Shown one piece after another: positions 4,693 to 60,087 of a DNA stretch of 64,000 nt (positions within the stretch are counted from its first letter, which is position 1; every line of letters starts with the position of its first letter). Under the pieces are notes generated by a model, which was not told the origin of the DNA, did no database searches, and saw only the letters and a list, made by a program, of their open reading frames with translations. Where the stretch lies: IMG/VR virus record IMGVR_UViG_3300028805_000046, positions 1 through 64,000 of that record; one strand, written 5' to 3'. The position numbers and the translations under genes are program-made. The stretch is from a virus. Lineage: Duplodnaviria > Caudoviricetes.

Positions 4693-5847
4693 ATGAATAC
4701 ATTAATCTGTTTGACAAAGACATACAGCTTAGGTGATTTTGACATTTGGTTGTCATATCACCTTTTGCATTTTAATAGAATAGTCATACTTGACAACGAG
4801 TCAGATGTAGACATCAAGCAAGTATGCGATGAACACGAGCAAGTCGAGTACCACTTAATCAAAGGTTGGCCTGACCAGTGGCATCTTTTCTCTGACATTC
4901 TAAACCAGAAGACAGACATCAAGTTCGAGCAAGATGAACTTGTAACATTCCTTGATGATGACGAGTATCTACTTGTAACCAAGCCTGTCAAGGCAAACAC
5001 GATTGACGACTTTTCTCCTGAAGACACGGAGAACATCATGCGTCATCAGTTCCATTGTCTTGACTGCGCATTAATGCCGGAAATCTTGATGGTTTCTTCA
5101 GTGCCTAGAGACAATCGTTCCTGCTTACTTCCATTTTCTTCAATCTACGCTGTAAAGCAGTTGTCTTCTCAAGGAAAGGCTTTCATTCGTTGGCAGCCCG
5201 GATTTGAATATGACTTCTGTAAGGAAGGACCTGAGATCGGTCATGTTCCGTGGATAAACGGAATTAGAATGTCTGACGTAGTCGGGTCAGGCGTCTCCAA
5301 GACAACTTACGGATTGCAGAAATTACCAGATAAAGATGATAACGGGTGCAGAATCTTCTTGTTGCATTATCATATTAAATCTATTGCTGAATGGGAAAAG
5401 AAGATTAAAAGAGGCTCTGCAGCCTCTAAAAATGAACCTGGACACAATGGTTCTTATGATGATGACATTCGTAAAGATCCGAAGTACCCTTGGAACAAGT
5501 CGTGGTTTAGCAAGACAGAAAATCTTCAGTACATGCCGCGTCTTTACACGCTTCTGTCTCAGCTGATTGAGAAACTTTACGGAATTACCCCAAGTTTTCC
5601 TAGAGATGATCTTTCTAGCTTCCAGTCAGTCGCACTTCCGCTTATTAGACGCGTCTATCCAAGTCTTCTTTCTATTCAGACTGTCGGCGTCATACCTATT
5701 CAGAATCCTGCAAGTACAACAAGTTACAGAAATTTGATACAGCAGACTCAGACTAGACTAAATAAGAACCCTTGGAAAACCGTTCTTCCGACAAATGGAA
5801 AGAATAATCAGAAATTGACTTGTTACCCATTTACAAAGAAGAAATAA
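4693..5847 (+). CDS. GT-A fold glycosyltransferase (GT2/GT92-like) with a C-terminal gp23 Gol-like segment
   Basis: WLSYHL, ILDNES, FLDDDEYL (DxD), LLHYHIKS..EW..K..RG motifs; tail VALPLIRRVYPSLLSIQTVGVIPIQNP. Confidence 0.75.
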   Translation: MNTLICLTKTYSLGDFDIWLSYHLLHFNRIVILDNESDVDIKQVCDEHEQVEYHLIKGWPDQWHLFSDILNQKTDIKFEQDELVTFLDDDEYLLVTKPVKANTIDDFSPEDTENIMRHQFHCLDCALMPEILMVSSVPRDNRSCLLPFSSIYAVKQLSSQGKAFIRWQPGFEYDFCKEGPEIGHVPWINGIRMSDVVGSGVSKTTYGLQKLPDKDDNGCRIFLLHYHIKSIAEWEKKIKRGSAASKNEPGHNGSYDDDIRKDPKYPWNKSWFSKTENLQYMPRLYTLLSQLIEKLYGITPSFPRDDLSSFQSVALPLIRRVYPSLLSIQTVGVIPIQNPASTTSYRNLIQQTQTRLNKNPWKTVLPTNGKNNQKLTCYPFTKKK

Positions 5848-26971: not shown

Positions 26972-27040
26972 TGCCACGGAAAAAATTTCCGTGGCTTTTC
27001 TTATTTTGGTATTTACATTTTCGTCAAAAGTTATTATTTT
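26972..27040 (+). promoter_or_regulatory. terminator hairpin then promoter TTTACA-N17-TATTTT
   Basis: GCCACGGAAA/TTTCCGTGGC stem; -35 at 27012, -10 at 27035. Confidence 0.65.
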
Positions 27041-27766: not shown

Positions 27767-28030
27767 ATGAAATCAAATGACCAGAAATTTCAAGAACTTG
27801 TAGATGAACACGTTCATACTGAAGGCTTTAGGGCAAAGACTGAACAGTGCTTAATGAGCCTTGGCGGTTTCGGCTCTTGGGTAGTGCTTTGGCTTGGACT
27901 TTGCTTTTTCCTTCTTGCACCGTGGCCGCTCGGATTCATTATTGGATTTGTGCCTATCATTGCCGCTTCCTGGGTCGTTGATGAATGGGTTGAAATGAAG
28001 AAAAAGTTGAAAGAGGAGAAAGATGAGTAG
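27767..28030 (+). CDS. two-TM membrane protein
   Basis: Hydrophobic hairpin. Confidence 0.6.
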   Translation: MKSNDQKFQELVDEHVHTEGFRAKTEQCLMSLGGFGSWVVLWLGLCFFLLAPWPLGFIIGFVPIIAASWVVDEWVEMKKKLKEEKDE

Positions 28031-28205
28031 ATCTGATATTAAGAGCAAACTTTTGGACAGACTCGAAGACGGACGATTGCTTTGGGAAGATGTCGCCCGT
28101 GAATGTATTGCAGAAATGTCAACTGATGAAGTTGAAGAAATGTGCGATACATGCGAGTATCTTGCGGACGAAGACGAAGGAGAAACAGAAGACTATGACA
28201 GTTGA
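28023..28205 (+). CDS. small acidic hypothetical protein
   Basis: Coupled ORF. Confidence 0.6.
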   Translation: MSRSDIKSKLLDRLEDGRLLWEDVARECIAEMSTDEVEEMCDTCEYLADEDEGETEDYDS

Positions 28206-28402: not shown

Positions 28403-28588
28403 ATGAATAAGACAGTCATTAAAAGAATAAATGGCTACTTAACTGGAGCCAAATCTTGGAGTGCTGAAAGGCTCACGGACATTGAAAACCGTGAGTCTTT
28501 ACTTATTAACACAAAAGCAGACGCTGATTTTGTCCGTGCTAGACATCATGCAGAAATTATTTCTGCTGCAAGGAAATGGGAAGAATGA
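28403..28588 (+). CDS. tag-family protein carrying an NrdD glycyl-radical-loop fragment
   Basis: KRINGYLTGAKSWSAERLTDIENR; ends EIISAARKWEE*. Confidence 0.65.
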   Translation: MNKTVIKRINGYLTGAKSWSAERLTDIENRESLLINTKADADFVRARHHAEIISAARKWEE

Positions 28589-28899
28589 ACTTAAATGAAT
28601 ACTTTGAAAGAAATCCTGGAGTTGTAGAAAGGATAAAAGCAGGAAAGTATAGCAGAGAAACATGGGAAAGGGTGTTTCCAGACTTGTCCGCTGTTGCATG
28701 GTCTTCGTTTGTTACTAACTACTTAACTAAAACTGGAAAAGCATTTCTTGCTCCTGTAAGATCTAATGTTCGTTATGTAGTTATGTCTACCAAAGATTAT
28801 GAAGATCAGTTAGCAATCAATCAGAAATTTCAAAGAATGTACATTCAAGAAAAACGAGAAAAAGCATATCGTGAGGCTGCTGCACAATATGACTGTTGA
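28585..28899 (+). CDS. tag-family protein
   Basis: Ends AYREAAAQYDC*. Confidence 0.65.
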   Translation: MNLNEYFERNPGVVERIKAGKYSRETWERVFPDLSAVAWSSFVTNYLTKTGKAFLAPVRSNVRYVVMSTKDYEDQLAINQKFQRMYIQEKREKAYREAAAQYDC

Positions 28900-29158
28900 T
28901 GAGCTTTTATCTTTAGACCCTGATTTTGGTACTGAGGAAGATGCTGCACGCTTCTTAAAATGGAAAGTTCCAACATGGGCAACTTCTATTTCAGGTCATA
29001 AATTGGACTGTCATTGCTTATGTGAATTAAGATTTGGTGAACTTAGTGTTCAAGAATTTCGTGAATTAGAAGAAATGCATCGTAAAATACGTGCTTATTT
29101 TAAAAAGATTGAAAAAGAAACGGAAATTCGTAAGGCTGCTTTAAAGTATGACTGTTGA
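28889..29158 (+). CDS. tag-family protein (paralog of next gene)
   Basis: MTVDEL start; ends EIRKAALKYDC*. Confidence 0.65.
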   Translation: MTVDELLSLDPDFGTEEDAARFLKWKVPTWATSISGHKLDCHCLCELRFGELSVQEFRELEEMHRKIRAYFKKIEKETEIRKAALKYDC

Positions 29159-29408
29159 TGAATTAAGAAAATGGAATGGCATGAAGGATGATAAGAATGA
29201 CACATGGGCTCTGGAAAGAATGCTGAATGAATCTGTTCCTGTTTATGCCAGCCTCATCTCGACAAGAACTTTACATCCTACGACTTTTAGTGGATTGACG
29301 ATAAGAGATCTTAGCTTGGACGAACTGTTAGAATGCCAAAAGATTTTTGATACATTTGCGAAAGAAGTAAGAATAAGGAAAGCAAGCTATGCGTGGGAGA
29401 ACGATTGA
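29148..29408 (+). CDS. tag-family protein
   Basis: MTVDEL start; ends RIRKASYAWEND*. Confidence 0.65.
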   Translation: MTVDELRKWNGMKDDKNDTWALERMLNESVPVYASLISTRTLHPTTFSGLTIRDLSLDELLECQKIFDTFAKEVRIRKASYAWEND

Positions 29409-29640
29409 ATGGGAAGATGAAAAGCAGAAATCTCTTGTACAGAGCATTATAGACGCCTCACGTAAGATTTCAATGAATGCTGCCGGCCGCGGTAATTCAG
29501 GCATTATCTTTTCTCCTTATGTCGCTTCACTCTTTGAGGACGAGTACACCATGATTGATGTTTCTTCAGAAGAATACAAGAAGCAGCAGAAAGAACGACA
29601 TCAGCAAGAAATTAGAAAAGCTGCTGAGGAATGGAAATGA
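29389..29640 (+). CDS. tag-family protein carrying a gp23 major capsid fragment
   Basis: WEDEKQKSLVQSIIDASRKISMNAAGRGNSGIIFSPYVASLFE; ends EIRKAAEEWK*. Confidence 0.65.
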   Translation: MRGRTIEWEDEKQKSLVQSIIDASRKISMNAAGRGNSGIIFSPYVASLFEDEYTMIDVSSEEYKKQQKERHQQEIRKAAEEWK

Positions 29641-29933
29641 TAAATGATCAGTTTGACGCATTCACGAAGACTATAAAAGAGATTAGAAGCAATCTTGGTT
29701 ACATAAATGCTTCGCTTGAAGCAGTAAAATCAAATCTTACTAAATTGAATGATAAAATAGACACTGAAGAAAGTCTGTTAAAAATTCTTAAAGATGAAAT
29801 AACTCAGGAGATTGACAGAGACCTCATAAAGCAAATGATTCTTAATGATCCTGGCTCAAAAGAATGCAAAGCTCTTCAGAAAAAGAATCACATTCAAGAA
29901 ATTAAGGACGCTGCGAAAGAATATGAACTTTAA
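29637..29933 (+). CDS. tag-family protein carrying a gp23 helix fragment
   Basis: IDTEESLLKILKDEITQEIDRDLIKQM; ends EIKDAAKEYEL*. Confidence 0.65.
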   Translation: MINDQFDAFTKTIKEIRSNLGYINASLEAVKSNLTKLNDKIDTEESLLKILKDEITQEIDRDLIKQMILNDPGSKECKALQKKNHIQEIKDAAKEYEL

Positions 29934-30324
29934 AGAACTTACTGAAAAACTTAAAACTGTTCCTGATTTGGTATGCACCACGCTTGGTGGCGAAAATTCC
30001 TGGCAGCAAAAGATTTATTATCTAGCCAAATATTACAATGAAGAAGTCTACATGCCCGTATTCATTGTTGATGAAAGAAGAGAAACAGTTTTCATCAACC
30101 ACTTTCAGTATGAATATAGTTCAATGATGTTTAACGGCAACACTGCTTCTTATACAGACTTTGAAGACTTTTGGATGAATCTTGACGGCTGGATTCACAC
30201 CGTTGATAAAGAAGTCAGCGCAGCTATAGTTGAACAGCAGAATCATCAAAGAATGCTAACTGAACTGAAAAAAGAAAAGAAAGAGTATGCGATTCGTCAT
30301 GCCGCAGTAGAATGGAGCACTTAG
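29923..30324 (+). CDS. tag-family protein
   Basis: Ends AIRHAAVEWST*. Confidence 0.65.
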   Translation: MNFKELTEKLKTVPDLVCTTLGGENSWQQKIYYLAKYYNEEVYMPVFIVDERRETVFINHFQYEYSSMMFNGNTASYTDFEDFWMNLDGWIHTVDKEVSAAIVEQQNHQRMLTELKKEKKEYAIRHAAVEWST

Positions 30325-30377: not shown

Positions 30378-30385
30378 TATAAATA
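30378..30385 (+). promoter_or_regulatory. late promoter TATAAATA upstream of uvsX
   Basis: Exact T4 late consensus; an adjacent TATATT box lies just upstream. Confidence 0.55.
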
Positions 30386-30444
30386 ATGTACCGATCATTG
30401 GTAGTCGGTCGTTATTTAGCAATTATTAAGCATGGAGAAATAAA

Positions 30445-31626
30445 ATGGCAAAGAAACAAAGCAACGCATTCATAGCAAAGATCAAGAGAGACAAAGCATT
30501 TGCAGATATTCTTTCTGCAGACAATTTTGAGGAACAGTTCGTTTCCACTAACTGTGGACCTGTAAACGTCCTTTTCTCAGGACGAGTAAAGAATGGTGGT
30601 ATCAAGAAAGGATGTATGGTTACCATCGCTGCTGACTCTAAGCAGGGTAAGTCACTTATCGGTTTGAACCTTCTTGCTGAAGCATATAAGAGCGGCATGT
30701 CTTGTATCGTTATAGATTCCGAAAACGCATTTAACACAAGATTGGCAAGAATGCTTGGTGTTGATACAGACGACATCGTTGTGTTCAAGACTTCCCGTAT
30801 TCCTGAAATTAAACAAATCTTCGCTCGTGTCAATAACGGTTTGACTCGTGCAGAATCTCGTGAAATCTTTATTCTTCTTGACTCCTGGGGTCCGCTTGTT
30901 GAAGAACAAGTTCTTGAAAAAGCAGCTCAGGCATCTTCCGCTGTGAACATGTCTGGTGCAAGATTCAAGAACGAACTTGCAAACGTCATCAACGCTTATG
31001 GTAACACGACTTTCATCGTCAACCACGTCTATGACACAATGGACCCATATTCCCCAACTGGTAAGTTCGCAATTCCTGGTGGTAAGCGTCTTGTATTCAA
31101 CTCTGACGCAATCGTTCTTGCATCATCTTCTGCTAAGGCAAAGGACTCTGACGGCGCCATCTATGGTAAGATCATTACTGCTGCTGTTTCTAAGGGCCGT
31201 AATGCTAAGGAATTTAAGAAGTTGAAGTTCTTGATTGAATTGGACGGCGGTATCAACCCTTACTATGGCTTGCTTGAAGAAGCAATTGAGTCGGGTGTCG
31301 TTGTTAAGCAGAAGAAAGGTGTCTCAAACGTCTTTGTTCGTCCTAAGTATGACACTGATGGACGTGAATGGAAGGAAAAGGAACTTTACTGTGCGAAGTT
31401 CTGGGTTCCTGTCTTCGCTGATGATGCTTTCAATGATTTCCTTGAAAGAAAGTTCTCGTTTGAAGAAACTGTACTTACTTCTTCAAAGGAAAACATCAAC
31501 GATATGATTGCCGCAGGCGACTGGGACAATCTTCCGGATAACTCTTTGACTTCCAAGCAGGAAACTGAAAATCCTGAAATTCCTGATGAAGATGAACCGT
31601 TTACTTTTGACGTTGATAAAGACTAA
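30445..31626 (+). CDS. uvsX: RecA-like recombinase UvsX
   Basis: AADSKQGKS Walker A variant, IDSE, LLDSWG, VNHVY, PGGK. Confidence 0.92.
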   Translation: MAKKQSNAFIAKIKRDKAFADILSADNFEEQFVSTNCGPVNVLFSGRVKNGGIKKGCMVTIAADSKQGKSLIGLNLLAEAYKSGMSCIVIDSENAFNTRLARMLGVDTDDIVVFKTSRIPEIKQIFARVNNGLTRAESREIFILLDSWGPLVEEQVLEKAAQASSAVNMSGARFKNELANVINAYGNTTFIVNHVYDTMDPYSPTGKFAIPGGKRLVFNSDAIVLASSSAKAKDSDGAIYGKIITAAVSKGRNAKEFKKLKFLIELDGGINPYYGLLEEAIESGVVVKQKKGVSNVFVRPKYDTDGREWKEKELYCAKFWVPVFADDAFNDFLERKFSFEETVLTSSKENINDMIAAGDWDNLPDNSLTSKQETENPEIPDEDEPFTFDVDKD

Positions 31627-31724: not shown

Positions 31725-32285
31725 ATGATCATTGTGATAGAAGGTCCTAACAGAGTAGGAAAAAGCACGCAGATCGCTAATCTCAAGAATTATTACGAAA
31801 GCAAAGGAATGCGTGTTCATGTAATTCATTATGAACATATTCACCTTGACCCGACAAGAACTTATACTCCCGAAGCGATGAAGGATATGGCGACTGTCCG
31901 TTATGATGATATGTTGAAACTTGCAAATGAATTCGCAAAAGATCCGATGTCCGTAATCATTTTTGATAGAGCGCATCTTGGTGAACACGTCTATGGACCC
32001 AAGTATAGAGATTATTCTGGTGAATATGTCTTTGAACTTGAAAAGAAATATCCAGAATTTCTTCAGAACGCCTATGAATTTGTTTTCATCGATGACGCAG
32101 AAAATCTTTTAGCACGTGAAGATGGACTGAGCCCGACACAAGGTCTTGAACAGAAGAAGTATGAATTGAGTTCATTCATTGATGCTTTTGTGAGAAGCAA
32201 TGTTCATCATAAAGCACTTATTAGATTGTCTGCAATCGGCGATGCAGATGCAGTATGGAAACACATTAAGGAGATGATAGTATGA
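31725..32285 (+). CDS. thymidylate-kinase-like dNMP kinase
   Basis: IEGPNRVGKST, IFDRAHLGE.VY. Confidence 0.88.
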   Translation: MIIVIEGPNRVGKSTQIANLKNYYESKGMRVHVIHYEHIHLDPTRTYTPEAMKDMATVRYDDMLKLANEFAKDPMSVIIFDRAHLGEHVYGPKYRDYSGEYVFELEKKYPEFLQNAYEFVFIDDAENLLAREDGLSPTQGLEQKKYELSSFIDAFVRSNVHHKALIRLSAIGDADAVWKHIKEMIV

Positions 32286-33034
32286 TTAAAGACTTTGAAA
32301 TGAAAGAAGATTTGACAGTGCAGTCAAGAACAGGTCGTGGAAATAACACAACTATTAAAGATGATGCACTTATGCCGCTTGCATACAAGTATATGAATGG
32401 CGAGAAAGTAGGTAATACTTGGGAGATCATTGATGCACATTTGACTCTCAATCCGTATCAGCCTTACTTGTCAATCTTTGGCCGACCGTTTAAAAAGGAC
32501 TATCTTGAAAAGGAACACAAGTGGTACATGTCTCAAGATCTTTCTATCAAAGGATGGATGGACGACATCAAGATCTGGAACTGGTGTGCATCAAAAGATG
32601 ACAAGCAGCTCATCAACTCAAATTATGGTTGGTGCGTCTTCAGTGCAGAAAATGGCAATCAGTATGAAAATTGCCTGAAGAAACTTACAGAAGATGTCAA
32701 CACAAGAGAAGCGTTGATGATCTATACTCGTCCTTCAATGCATCACGATGCGATTGAAAATGGCAAGCATGATTTCATGTGTACTGTTTCCGCACAGTTG
32801 ATGATTAGAGACAATACACTTCAGTACATTGTAACCCAAAGATCTTGCGACATCGTAACAGGTTTGTCATTTGACTTCCCTTGGCACTGTTTTGTCTATC
32901 AGATGATGTATGAAGAACTTAAGAAGAAGTATCCGAACTTGGCAAAAGGCAGCATCTTCTATAATGTCGGTTCGCTTCACATTTATGAAAGACATGAAAA
33001 CCTTTTGAAATCATTCGTTGCTTACGAGATGTAA
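32282..33034 (+). CDS. 42: dCMP hydroxymethylase (ThyA fold, T4 gp42-like)
   Basis: NSNYGW, TREA..IY.RP, DFMCT catalytic Cys, RSCD...GLSFD (Asp at the dCMP/dUMP discriminator), SLHIYE. Confidence 0.85.
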   Translation: MIKDFEMKEDLTVQSRTGRGNNTTIKDDALMPLAYKYMNGEKVGNTWEIIDAHLTLNPYQPYLSIFGRPFKKDYLEKEHKWYMSQDLSIKGWMDDIKIWNWCASKDDKQLINSNYGWCVFSAENGNQYENCLKKLTEDVNTREALMIYTRPSMHHDAIENGKHDFMCTVSAQLMIRDNTLQYIVTQRSCDIVTGLSFDFPWHCFVYQMMYEELKKKYPNLAKGSIFYNVGSLHIYERHENLLKSFVAYEM

Positions 33035-57058: not shown

Positions 57059-57508
57059 ATGGGAAAATATGTTTCTTCTCGTTCTGCAGATAAATTGCAG
57101 TTTGATGTCAATACTGTAAAGCTTGGACAACTTCCAGGCATCTTTGACACGATTACACAGCAAGGCGGTTTCTTCAAGAAATTTGCTGATATGTGGAAGG
57201 AAGGCGAAAATTATATTGGCGATGAAGACGAAGGCCTGATGGAATATGATACCGACGAGACTTTGGAAGTTCTTCATATTGATGATGAAGATATGAAGAC
57301 TTTCAAGCTCGCAGATGCTTTTTCGCATACTGACTTCTGGATAAATCCGGCTTTTGAAAATACAGTTCTTGCAGACATTAAAGGCGGCGTTGCTTCTAAG
57401 TCTCTTTATGGTGTCCTTTCTAAAGGACATTCTGATGAAGCAAGCATTTTGGTTTTTTATGAAAAAGACACTGGGACTGTGATAGGATATGAAGTAGATG
57501 TTGACTAA
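57059..57508 (+). CDS. acidic hypothetical protein
   Basis: Same TAAGGAGAACTAAAATG RBS as the previous gene. Confidence 0.65.
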   Translation: MGKYVSSRSADKLQFDVNTVKLGQLPGIFDTITQQGGFFKKFADMWKEGENYIGDEDEGLMEYDTDETLEVLHIDDEDMKTFKLADAFSHTDFWINPAFENTVLADIKGGVASKSLYGVLSKGHSDEASILVFYEKDTGTVIGYEVDVD

Positions 57509-57770
57509 AACAGTTCTGCCAACTCTTTACATTCAAGATGAAGAATCTTTTAAGAATGCTCTCATCAGACTTCACTTCATAAAAGCAAGCACAGAAACTG
57601 GTCTTGACTGCAGGTACGGCGACTATTCTTTTTCTTGTAGACTTATTAAGGCTTTAGGCTGTAAATGCTTTGAAGACCTTAAAAGTCATTTCAATCGTAT
57701 TGAACTGAATAAGCAGAAACAAGACAAGATTAATGAAATGAGAGCAGAAAGAAACAAGTGGGAGGTGTAA
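57498..57770 (+). CDS. tag-family protein (divergent tag)
   Basis: Ends INEMRAERNKWEV*. Confidence 0.55.
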   Translation: MLTKTVLPTLYIQDEESFKNALIRLHFIKASTETGLDCRYGDYSFSCRLIKALGCKCFEDLKSHFNRIELNKQKQDKINEMRAERNKWEV

Positions 57771-57771
57771 A

Positions 57772-58038
57772 ATGTGTCTTTGCTGTGACTTGGTAGGAAA
57801 AAGAATTCCTAAGCATCTTGCACAAAAGATTGAAAAGAATCCTGCCACAAGACGCCTTTATGATGAATTCCGAGAATATGACGTTGACATTCAGGAAATT
57901 CTTGCTGTCTTTGATAAGTATAACTGGGATCCGATAAGAGCTAGGAAAGAAAATGAAGGAAAACTTATGGCTTTGAAGAAAAACAAGGAAAAGAAAATCA
58001 AAATCCGCGAAGCCGGCGACGAATTTGTAGTTGATTAA
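57772..58038 (+). CDS. tag-family protein
   Basis: Ends KIREAGDEFVVD*. Confidence 0.6.
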   Translation: MCLCCDLVGKRIPKHLAQKIEKNPATRRLYDEFREYDVDIQEILAVFDKYNWDPIRARKENEGKLMALKKNKEKKIKIREAGDEFVVD

Positions 58039-58530: not shown

Positions 58531-58553
58531 AAAAAAAGAATTTGATTTTGAAT

Positions 58554-59015
58554 ATGAAACTTTTACCAATGAAAAACAGAGTTTATCGTCTAGATACTGA
58601 CTTAATTCATAGCGCTATTCGTGATGCGATGGCGCATGAAAAATTTGTCGGTAAGAAGTTACGAACTGCACTTGTGTTAAAAGGAAATCCGTTCAGTCTT
58701 TGTTTCTGGAAATTTGCTGTAAGATTTGCAGAAGAATACCGTAGATTCTTTCCTGAAAAGATGGTTGATGAATTTCTCGATGCAGAAGTTGACTATCGTA
58801 CAAATGAAGCCATCGTCTATCAAGTAAAGAAACATGCAGTAAAACATCTTGGAAAGTTTTTCCGTGAAAATCTCGCTGAATATGTTCTTGATTTCGTTAC
58901 GAAGCATGAACAGGAATTTGATAAGACTCCGGAAATGTACAAAGAGTTTATAAATAACTTGAAGAAATTTGCAGAAATAAAAATTGCAGCAGTAGAATAT
59001 TCAGAGGAAACATGA
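58554..59015 (+). CDS. tag-family protein
   Basis: Ends EIKIAAVEYSEET*. Confidence 0.6.
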   Translation: MKLLPMKNRVYRLDTDLIHSAIRDAMAHEKFVGKKLRTALVLKGNPFSLCFWKFAVRFAEEYRRFFPEKMVDEFLDAEVDYRTNEAIVYQVKKHAVKHLGKFFRENLAEYVLDFVTKHEQEFDKTPEMYKEFINNLKKFAEIKIAAVEYSEET

Positions 59016-59269
59016 CATTTAAAGAATTAAGTTCTAGAGTCCAAGACACTTATAGCGACTCTGAAGAAATCAAAAGCATTACTGGTGATGACAAGCATTT
59101 TATCATTAAGTTCATTGATGACAAGACACAGTTTCTTGTAGCGACAGATCCTTCTGTTGAAGGTAAGTTTTTCTTGGCGATTTTTGAAGGAAAGAAAAAG
59201 GTAGACGCTGACTGGGTTGAGGATAAAGAAGTTCTGCTTAACATTGAAAAGCAGATTGAGGTTTTGTAA
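59012..59269 (+). CDS. hypothetical protein
   Basis: ATGA overlap, GAGG RBS. Confidence 0.6.
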   Translation: MTFKELSSRVQDTYSDSEEIKSITGDDKHFIIKFIDDKTQFLVATDPSVEGKFFLAIFEGKKKVDADWVEDKEVLLNIEKQIEVL

Positions 59270-60087
59270 TGGCTCTTGTTGAGGATATAAAGAAAAGAAA
59301 CATTCAGATTTTTGAAAGCAATCAGGAAATGCTCGCAAATGATGAACGAGCACAAAAATGCATCGCCGCTTCTATCAAGCGTCAAGAATTCATTAGTAAA
59401 GACACTTTGATTCCTTGGAAAGAAAGATTTGCTGAACCTGCAAAAGTTATCATTTCGCATCGTTCAACTCTTGACGCCGCAAGACGCTATCATGAAGGAA
59501 AGACAGCAGTCTTGAATTTTGCATCAGCGACGAACCCTGGAGGCGGAGTTCTTAAAGGTTCTAACGCACAGGAAGAATGCATCTGCCGTTGCTCTACGCT
59601 TTACAACTGCCTGAATACTGCAGAAATGTTGAAGCAGTTTTATCAGCCGCATCGTAATGCTCATAACCAGCTTAACAATGATGACATTATCTATACGCCT
59701 TATGTCGTAGTTACTTTAGACGATTACTACAAGCTTCTTGAGTCTTCTTACATGGTCGACGTCATTACTTGTGCAGCTCCGAATCTTCGTCCTGATAAAG
59801 ATGGAAAGGAAATAAAGATTAGCAATGAAGATCTTTATGAACTTCATCAGAAGCGTGTGACTCGCATTCTTGCTGCGGCTGCTGCGCATAACGTAGACAA
59901 CATCATTCTTGGAGCATTTGGTTGCGGCGCGTTCAGAAATGATCCTGAAATAGTCGCTAAGGCTTATAAGACTGTTCTTCCGAGATTCGCAAAATGCTTT
60001 AAGAACATTGAGTTTGCGATTTACTGTAGTAAAGACAGTGATAGAAACAACTTCTATGCTTTTCATAAAGTACTTGGAGGAAAATGA
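59269..60087 (+). CDS. bacterial-type PARG/macrodomain ADP-ribosyl hydrolase (TIGR02452/DUF2263-like)
   Basis: LNFASATNPGGG..GSNAQEE.ICR.S, ITCAAPN, LGAFGCGAF.N. Confidence 0.9.
   Translation: MALVEDIKKRNIQIFESNQEMLANDERAQKCIAASIKRQEFISKDTLIPWKERFAEPAKVIISHRSTLDAARRYHEGKTAVLNFASATNPGGGVLKGSNAQEECICRCSTLYNCLNTAEMLKQFYQPHRNAHNQLNNDDIIYTPYVVVTLDDYYKLLESSYMVDVITCAAPNLRPDKDGKEIKISNEDLYELHQKRVTRILAAAAAHNVDNIILGAFGCGAFRNDPEIVAKAYKTVLPRFAKCFKNIEFAIYCSKDSDRNNFYAFHKVLGGK

Follow-up and report, generated by a model that had tools for sequence, protein, structure and literature searches.

Why should seven small, mostly unrelated proteins, encoded one after another in a phage genome, all end in the same short tail? 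The question is raised by an array of overlapping open reading frames (ORFs), named m1 to m7 here, in the first 64 kb (64,000 nucleotides, referred to below as the window) of a 184,671-bp linear virus record of the IMG/VR database (IMGVR_UViG_3300028805_000046), the phage being T4-like and uncultured. An initial annotation, made from the letters of the window, had proposed that variable bodies are combined in this array with one constant C-terminal module. This architecture was borne out by the restriction of the tail to C-termini, by its conservation in orthologs, by bodies derived from the major capsid protein gp23 and from NrdD, and by the occurrence of another tag in another lineage. What the combination does is less certain. 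The annotation had suggested docking on one hub, so as to neutralize immune sensors or harm competing phages; it is quite possible, though we put it forward tentatively, that the bodies imitate invariant peptides of the phage, that the tail serves all of them as a handle, and that these baits occupy sensors.

The seven ORFs are all present on the plus strand with the C-termini that had been quoted for them, and in each of them I-[RK]-x-A-A-x-x-[WY] is followed by 1–3 residues and the stop codon. Their coordinates (Table 1) are those of the best-placed start codons; m7 had been taken to be a protein of 159 aa starting at 29845, but its start more likely lies at 29923, which gives 133 aa. The bodies had been described as unrelated, and mostly they are, the tail being all that most pairs have in common, but m3 and m4 turned out to be full-length paralogs (E-value, E, 2e-6). 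When every ORF of the record was scanned with a regular expression, nine matches were found, eight of them 1–3 residues from the stop. A profile (A1) built from 23 tails, which include this genome's own so that it was partly trained on the tails it scores, was run over all six frames of the record and gave 11 segments of at least 21 bits, all 0–3 residues from the stop, versus at most 6.5 bits on reversed or shuffled sequences, in keeping with the enrichment at C-termini that had been predicted. With this profile m1 to m7 all scored 30–36 bits, 0–1 residues from the stop, and all of them fit the definition of the tail family, i.e., a small ORF of the T4-like clade with an [IL]-[KR]-x-A-[AGS]-x-x-[WYF] helix no more than 5 residues from the stop.

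Four further ORFs with the tail (carriers, as such ORFs are called below) lie outside the array and were found by regular expressions, strict or looser, modelled on the seven array tails; the ORF at 57498-57770, which precedes one of them, ends in a degenerate variant, EMRAERNKWEV. The sole internal tail-like match in the genome (KHIYEIRAAAVQ, 13.9 bits) was seen in a 307-aa ORF without a known family (G000 79262-80185; L011:1263-2186). A profile made only from the tails of relatives detected just m5 (E 9e-8) and m6 (E 2.5e-7) in this genome, which indicates that m1–m4 and m7 carry a looser variant with A-A instead of A-G and with the His often missing. Between the aromatic residue and the C-terminus there are 1–5 residues, often acidic or polar (EE, DC, END, K, EL, ST). 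Neither the tail profile nor the carriers, searched against Pfam, PHROGs and PDB sequences, linked the tail to a known family. The tail resembles the C-terminus of ribosomal protein bL12 (L-E-E-A-G-x-E-V-E-x-K); there was no Pfam or PDB match, the pattern is a common helix-capping one, and the lead was rejected.

The conservation of the tail had been placed at the protein level, and the codons agreed with this: in all pairs of 25 tails, the fraction of shared residues with identical codons was 0.462, versus 0.446 expected from codon usage, and for the window array alone it was 0.513 versus 0.382. At the conserved positions, Ile is written ATT, ATC or ATA, Ala with all four of its codons, and Lys/Arg as AAA, AAG, AGA, CGT or CGC. 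The start codon of the next gene lies anywhere from inside the aromatic codon to past the stop, and the tail is kept where no downstream gene is coupled to it, as in m7, in 166902-167414 and in the last array gene of one relative (L004). The codon variation, the varied position of the next start and the uncoupled tails together point to selection on the peptide. The ratio of nonsynonymous to synonymous substitution rates (dN/dS) of carriers between relatives was 0.13–0.61 (0.16–0.58 for m2, whose tail dN was below its body dN), versus 0.01–0.04 for UvsX, and in most pairs the dN of the tail was lower than that of the body. Judged by these rates, the carriers are real, fast-evolving genes.

The parents of several bodies could be recognized. 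The best match of m1 in the phage's own proteome was the C-terminus of NrdD with its glycyl-radical loop (E 1e-3 over 33 residues; IKRINGYLTGA...KSW versus VRRITGYLTGS...KSW), where 7 of 11 residues are identical and none of the codons are, i.e., the segment has been re-coded; in Pfam, m1 had only a sub-threshold NRDD match (residues 4–31, E 0.17). For m6, residues 201–245 of the phage's own gp23 were matched with E 0.04, Pfam Gp23 at positions 167–197 with 17.8 bits and E 0.0024 (29754-29846 with E 9e-4 in the whole-genome scan), and the PHROG major head protein with E 0.0021; m5 gave 13.4 bits in Pfam Gp23, and neither of the two reached the cut-off of PF07068, 24.4 bits. Carriers of relatives were matched to the gp23 of the window phage at residues 338–382 (L004:3634, an m5 ortholog, E 4e-9), 81–104 (L004:4961, E 3e-6), 80–121 (L007:3877, E 5e-5) and 91–134 (L007:4076, E 7e-6), and family profiles gave about 3e-8 for the types named GolA and GolB and 3.4e-4 for the m5 type against the same protein. 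Of 34 carriers, five were matched by Pfam Gp23 (best E 1e-7), the only Pfam family with more than one carrier among its matches; the PHROG major head protein family was matched by four carriers. In a tblastn search, the m5 ortholog gave one match per record, to the capsid gene, in 1,798 deposited phage genomes. Since the carriers comprise only single segments of 25–60 residues, they are gp23-derived fragments and not capsid proteins. The resemblance of some bodies to fragments of conserved proteins, claimed at the outset, was thus recovered for m1, and for m5 and m6 by matches that are weak and sub-threshold in Pfam.

The modules also occur in natural fusions: m1 is joined to m6 in the protein P0086, two modules with an internal and a terminal tail are found in L004:5350-5718 and P0001, and in L004:3634-4056 the stop after the tail has been lost and the frame continues for 64 residues over the next gene. 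Such fusions indicate that the modules recombine. As to the other bodies, the m3/m4 family profile gave a 7-bit match to the catalytic-Cys region of a ThyA-like ORF (32282-33034) two genes 3′ of uvsX, and the two paralogs resemble the W...C-H...G-x-L-S motif of ThyA; a thymidylate-synthase origin was not supported by the Pfam model, which found no second match in the genome. The look-alikes of m7 in the ESM Atlas had scores too low for use.

The strongest argument for a real bait-plus-tag design came from a second tag on the same gp23 segments. IMG/VR was searched with the DNA pattern of [VI][DN]-W-x-K-E-G-F-stop, and 26 stretches (L069-L094) were found, several of them with 2–4 copies, which contain 32 distinct small ORFs ending in this tag. 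The phages in question are distantly related to the window phage (their gp23 is 28–53% identical), and their arrays lie ~5 kb downstream of g23. The bodies were matched to Pfam Gp23 at 3–48 (E 3e-11) and 143–184 (E 1.6e-9), both above the curated cut-off, and at 27–51 and 310–338; those of L069 go back to the gp23 of the same phage (58% identity over 60 residues, E 5e-23), where in L069:8124-8480 two gp23 segments stand in swapped order, residues 460–485 before residues 407–459. On these alignments, the same stretches of the capsid protein carry unrelated C-terminal tags in two lineages. The bait-plus-tag design seems, then, to have evolved repeatedly, a recurrence that favours a function, and the second tag speaks against both a diverged paralog family and an artefact of gene coupling.

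The loci of closer relatives were located through UvsX and through individual carriers. Their gene order is the same as here (DNA polymerase, small genes, array, uvsX, a 185-aa ORF, a thymidylate-synthase-family gene, helicase, gp32), with 6–11 tail-bearing ORFs between the DNA polymerase gene and uvsX. Their tail is sharper, often starting with T-P-E-E-R-x-K-W-x-K-E and continuing with H-[LI]-x-E-I-K-x-A-G-x-x-[YW]-x(2-3)-stop, and in the whole contigs of five relatives the profile found tails inside the arrays only. Orthologs of m3 are present in L007 and L067, and those of m2 in L007, L065 and L067 terminate in QLKEATEQW. At 90% identity, one carrier type formed 55 ortholog clusters and m1 formed 12, and among the aligned members of these clusters bait and tail are nearly invariant within each group; in the 12 clusters of m1, R-I-N-G-Y-L-x-G and the tail are invariant. 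The tail is therefore conserved in orthologs, as the initial annotation had required. A search of 1.84 billion representative proteins with the tail profile returned only eight clusters at E <1e-3, proteins of 56–115 aa that all match at the extreme C-terminus. When IMG/VR was scanned with a DNA pattern for EIKxAGxEY, true tails were found only in three already known contigs, and the chance matches in other viral contigs (n=45) were not C-terminal, bar one possible exception. No match was obtained by blastn of the region against 50,697 phage records or by tblastn with m6. As far as these sequence searches reach, the tail family appears confined to a narrow clade.

For the m5 family, AlphaFold2 predicted an N-terminal helix, a disordered stretch (residues 34–56) that coincides with the gp23-like peptide, and a helix from residue 60 to residue 82 that runs to the C-terminus (predicted local distance difference test score, pLDDT, 82–87); the disorder is as expected of a displayed linear peptide. 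From their spacing, the conserved tail residues (His/Leu, Ile, Ala-Ala/Gly and the aromatic residue) would lie on one face of the helix. The natural two-module protein P0001 was predicted to be all-helical with low confidence (pLDDT 57; predicted template modelling score, pTM, 0.23).

The carriers are accordingly accessory proteins made up of two modules. The first is a variable N-terminal "bait", at least five types of which are diverged, re-coded copies of segments that rank among the most conserved in the phage's own core proteins: the glycyl-radical loop of NrdD and several separate segments of gp23, one of them from the first quarter, where gp23 is most conserved. The second is the constant helix of ~25 residues, H-x-x-E-I-[KR]-x-A-[AG]-x-x-[YWF] followed by 1–5 residues and the stop, often with a T-P-E-E cap in relatives. 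As a shared protein–protein handle, the helix could dock on one partner or bundle the carriers, and it would give all the mimics one common fate or location, while the baits could act as competitive mimics that occupy whatever recognizes the invariant peptides. The most plausible target would be host defences that sense proteins, of the Lit/Gol (see below) or capsid-sensing kind; if synthesized ahead of the capsid protein, the mimics could keep such sensors occupied. In a wider version of this proposal, which is conceivable and somewhat unlikely, large T4-like phages would keep libraries of peptide decoys, copied and re-coded from the least mutable parts of their core proteins; a partner co-evolving with the lineage-specific handle would recognize it, and host protein-sensing immunity or a competing phage would thereby be intercepted.

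Several points weigh against baits that block sensors. No partner of the tail was identified here, and the tail may be nothing more than a stable helix with good caps by which short peptides are kept in solution. The variable number of residues (1–5) between the aromatic residue and the C-terminus does not fit a pocket that reads a free carboxylate. A mimic of an activating peptide might trigger the sensor instead of blocking it. Early expression is suggested by no more than a missing late box and a promoter match that is weak, and the W-x-K-E-G-F arrays, lying where they do 3′ of g23, may differ in timing. Within the window, the gp23 matches of m5 and m6 are below the Pfam threshold, and no parent was detected for m2, m3, m4 and m7 in the own-proteome search or with family profiles. 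That the baits are the "most conserved peptides" is partly a detection bias, because only fragments from conserved segments can be recognized.

Four other explanations were considered. The motif might be a by-product of nucleotide signals, whether these start translation of the following gene (Shine-Dalgarno sequence, start codon) or belong to a recombination cassette; every array junction overlaps by 4–20 nt, a Shine-Dalgarno-like AGG/GAGG lies inside each upstream tail in the codons for R/K or A-G, and the next ATG is sometimes found in the Tyr or Trp codon. This is nonetheless highly improbable and was largely refuted by the codon test: synonymous codons are free at the conserved residues, the next start stands at many positions relative to the motif, with His, Glu and Ile upstream of any such signal, tails occur without a coupled gene behind them, and there is no similarity to relatives at the DNA level. 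An ordinary paralog family, in which one small gene was duplicated, the bodies diverged, the helix was kept for structure and the fragments arose by chance or convergence, would agree with the m3/m4 pair, with tandem arrays, which are typical of duplication, and with the codon identity of the window-array tails, which is somewhat above expectation. It is, however, improbable, for no single mini-gene can be the ancestor of bodies that match NrdD and several distinct stretches of gp23 (E 1e-3 to 4e-9), the gp23 matches are confirmed independently by the Pfam and PHROG capsid profiles, and the presence of these segments under another tag in a second lineage means repeated fusion and not divergence.

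It is doubtful, too, that the proteins act in capsid assembly, with tagged gp23 fragments binding gp23 or the prohead as regulators, as cargo of the head interior or as dominant-negative poisons of co-infecting relatives. Such a role would be in line with baits that span several conserved gp23 segments in two lineages, with the proximity of the second lineage's arrays to g23 and with the established principle of C-terminal addressing to HK97-fold shells, as in encapsulin cargo peptides and scaffolding C-termini; a scaffold-like ORF (134928-135893) even holds an internal tail-like KLEEAAKQY, but this is one short match in a low-complexity helical protein and had no score in the profile search. 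The bait of m1, however, copies NrdD and not a head protein, no head protein of the genome ends in the motif (head-gene region, 126–141 kb), and the array, which stands in the stretch from the DNA polymerase gene to uvsX, has no late box before it. Nor do we think it likely that the tail is a charged, well-capped helix that needs no partner, an element of solubility or stability, or a degron, which spread because it is useful to any mini-protein. The T-P-E-E start and the A-G-x-x-aromatic end do resemble classical helix N- and C-caps, AlphaFold gives a confident isolated helix without tertiary packing, and both the variable spacing to the C-terminus and the failure to find a partner are as such an element would have it. 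For solubility, on the other hand, a helix would require no fixed spacing of His, Glu, Ile, Ala and the aromatic residue, would not have to be nearly invariant in ortholog groups and could stand elsewhere than at the C-terminus, and the second lineage's tag, which is very short and always ends in the same way (W-x-K-E-G-F-stop), has the look of a recognition peptide.

As regards the setting, T4-type late boxes (TATAAATA) are over-represented in the window (6 versus 1.6 expected), and none was found between 22580 and 30378. The one just upstream of uvsX is followed by a short hairpin, from which it appears that uvsX has its own late promoter, separate from the array. The transcription unit of the array is preceded by a terminator-like hairpin and a sigma-70-like promoter, both of them consensus matches only; promoter-like sites were not more numerous than expected from shuffled sequence. 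A 60-aa acidic, Cys-containing protein, which is not a member of the tail family, is encoded upstream of the array here and in all the relatives that were examined, where its gene stands first or close to the first array gene, with the invariant pattern R-E-C-I-x-E-M-S-x-D-x-V-x-x-M-C-D-x-C-x-Y. It is 62–67% identical between clades, far above the tail carriers, and formed only 14 clusters, each at least 63% identical to the window copy and, as far as searched, from the same clade; it may be linked to the array and is a candidate partner of the tail. A single complex prediction of the tail alignment with the alignment of this protein scored 0.01 versus a mark of 0.32, a value from which nothing is drawn in either direction. 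Elsewhere, a 384-aa ORF (4693-5847, plus strand) has a V-A-L-P-L-I-R-R-V-Y-P-S-L...G-V-x-P segment in common with gp23 and a weak Pfam Gp23 match (E 0.0012); it lies a long way from the head-gene cluster and probably encodes a gp24-like vertex paralog. Shortly 3′ of the second tail-bearing group, a 272-aa ORF (59269-60087, plus strand) looks by eye macrodomain/PARG-like (NPGGG motif), which suggests another accessory or counter-defence region at 57–60 kb.

Table 1. Positions of the array genes, of the other tail carriers and of further features named in the text; numbering is that of the record unless a locus (L) is given.
Feature	Position	Strand	Size	Tail	Tail core	Remarks
m1	28403-28588	+	61 aa	HHAEIISAARKWEE	28556-28579	NrdD glycyl-radical-loop copy (RINGYLTG...KSW)
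m2	28585-28899	+	104 aa	AYREAAAQYDC	28867-28890	ATGA overlap with m1
m3	28889-29158	+	89 aa	EIRKAALKYDC	29126-29149	m4 paralog
m4	29148-29408	+	86 aa	RIRKASYAWEND	29373-29396	m3 paralog
m5	29389-29640	+	83 aa	HQQEIRKAAEEWK	29611-29634	gp23-like peptide (GIIFSPYVASLF and preceding helix)
m6	29637-29933	+	98 aa	HIQEIKDAAKEYEL	29901-29924	body like a gp23 helical segment (LKDEITQEIDRDLI)
m7	29923-30324	+	133 aa	AIRHAAVEWST	30292-30315	last array gene, followed by an intergenic region
Tail-bearing ORF outside array	57772-58038	+	88 aa	KIKIREAGDEFVVD		27.9 bits, 1 residue from stop
Tail-bearing ORF outside array	~58542-59015	+	~157 aa	FAEIKIAAVEYSEET		21.8 bits; start uncertain
Tail-bearing ORF outside array	166462-166908					found by first regular-expression scan
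Tail-bearing ORF outside array	166902-167414					found by first regular-expression scan
W-x-K-E-G-F array	L069:7535-8480					example
W-x-K-E-G-F array	L083:7218-8227					example
W-x-K-E-G-F array	L075:6249-6692	-				example
Terminator-like hairpin	26973-26995	+				upstream of the array's transcription unit
Sigma-70-like promoter match	27012-27040	+				after the hairpin
Acidic Cys-containing protein	28023-28205	+	60 aa			contains RECIAEMSTDEVEEMCDTCEY
Ortholog of acidic protein	L004:1782-1952					
Ortholog of acidic protein	L007:2865-3047					
Ortholog of acidic protein	L065:7120-7302					
Ortholog of acidic protein	L067:6748-6930					
Late-promoter box and short hairpin	30378-30409					TATAAATA; just upstream of uvsX
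uvsX	30445-31626					directly downstream of array
nrdD	~105-108.6 kb					
gp23 gene (major capsid protein)	135976-137265					Pfam Gp23, 227.9 bits (whole-genome scan)

Many bacterial defences sense conserved phage proteins, above all the major capsid protein, and it is an open question how phages cope when such proteins cannot mutate freely. If the proposal of mimics joined to a handle is true, re-coded copies of invariant peptides with a common tail would be a new counter-strategy or a weapon between phages, and a natural example of a "binder plus common handle" design. The baits would then point to the parts of gp23 and NrdD that are recognized in the cell, and the tails could be used as affinity baits for the partner. 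No description of tagged capsid-fragment mini-proteins was found in searches of the full-text literature.

Several known systems have one or another of these features. The tails lack the fixed, mostly non-polar last residues with a free carboxylate that mark ssrA and ClpX C-motif degrons. The PeSL cassettes in the hyperplastic regions of T4-like phages consist of a promoter and a stem-loop between genes and are conserved at the DNA level (PMC4122927). Here, the conserved unit lies inside coding sequence, and its codons vary as codon usage predicts. In GrcA/YfiD, the whole radical domain of ~60 residues is homologous to pyruvate formate-lyase; m1 is likewise a small separate protein with a copy of a glycyl-radical loop (RINGYLTG, with the Gly kept), but its NrdD-like part comprises only ~27 residues, is N-terminal and is followed by the shared tail, and no Pfam glycyl-radical domain was found in m1.

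The capsid-targeting sequence (CTS) of T4 is an N-terminal stretch of ~10 residues on late proteins packed into the head and is cut off by the prohead protease. Like the tail, it is one short peptide common to unrelated small proteins of T4-type phages (IPI, IPII, IPIII and Alt) that gives them a common fate; the module described here, in contrast, is C-terminal, ~25 residues long and helical, has no similarity to the CTS and lies in a region without a late box. The N-termini of the carriers have no leader of ~10 residues ending in a prohead-protease site (L/I-x-E) in common, and H-[LI]-x-E occurs inside the tails of many relatives, while most window tails are without it. Encapsulin cargo peptides and scaffolding C-termini are closer in that a C-terminal address tag is put on diverse cargo in an HK97-fold capsid system; they differ in that no head protein of this phage ends in the motif and that one carrier mimics NrdD.

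The W-x-K-E-G-F mini-proteins have the same layout, i.e., arrays with one C-terminal tag and several bodies that are the same gp23 segments, but their tag is unrelated and short, with a fixed terminal Phe, and their arrays are 3′ of g23. A parallel that involves a host defence is the Gol region of gp23, a stretch of 29 residues in the first quarter of the protein that is its most conserved part and is sufficient to be sensed (PMC3014915). The Gol peptide binds EF-Tu, and the two together activate Lit, a protease encoded by prophage e14 (PMC3014915). Carriers of the types GolA and GolB, found in relatives, reproduce the first-quarter region of gp23; a segment of this type is absent from all seven window ORFs. 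We tentatively take the copied segment to be the Gol region. Gol itself, embedded in the complete capsid protein, sets off a defence, whereas in the phages described here the segment stands in a separate, re-coded mini-gene to which a tail has been added.

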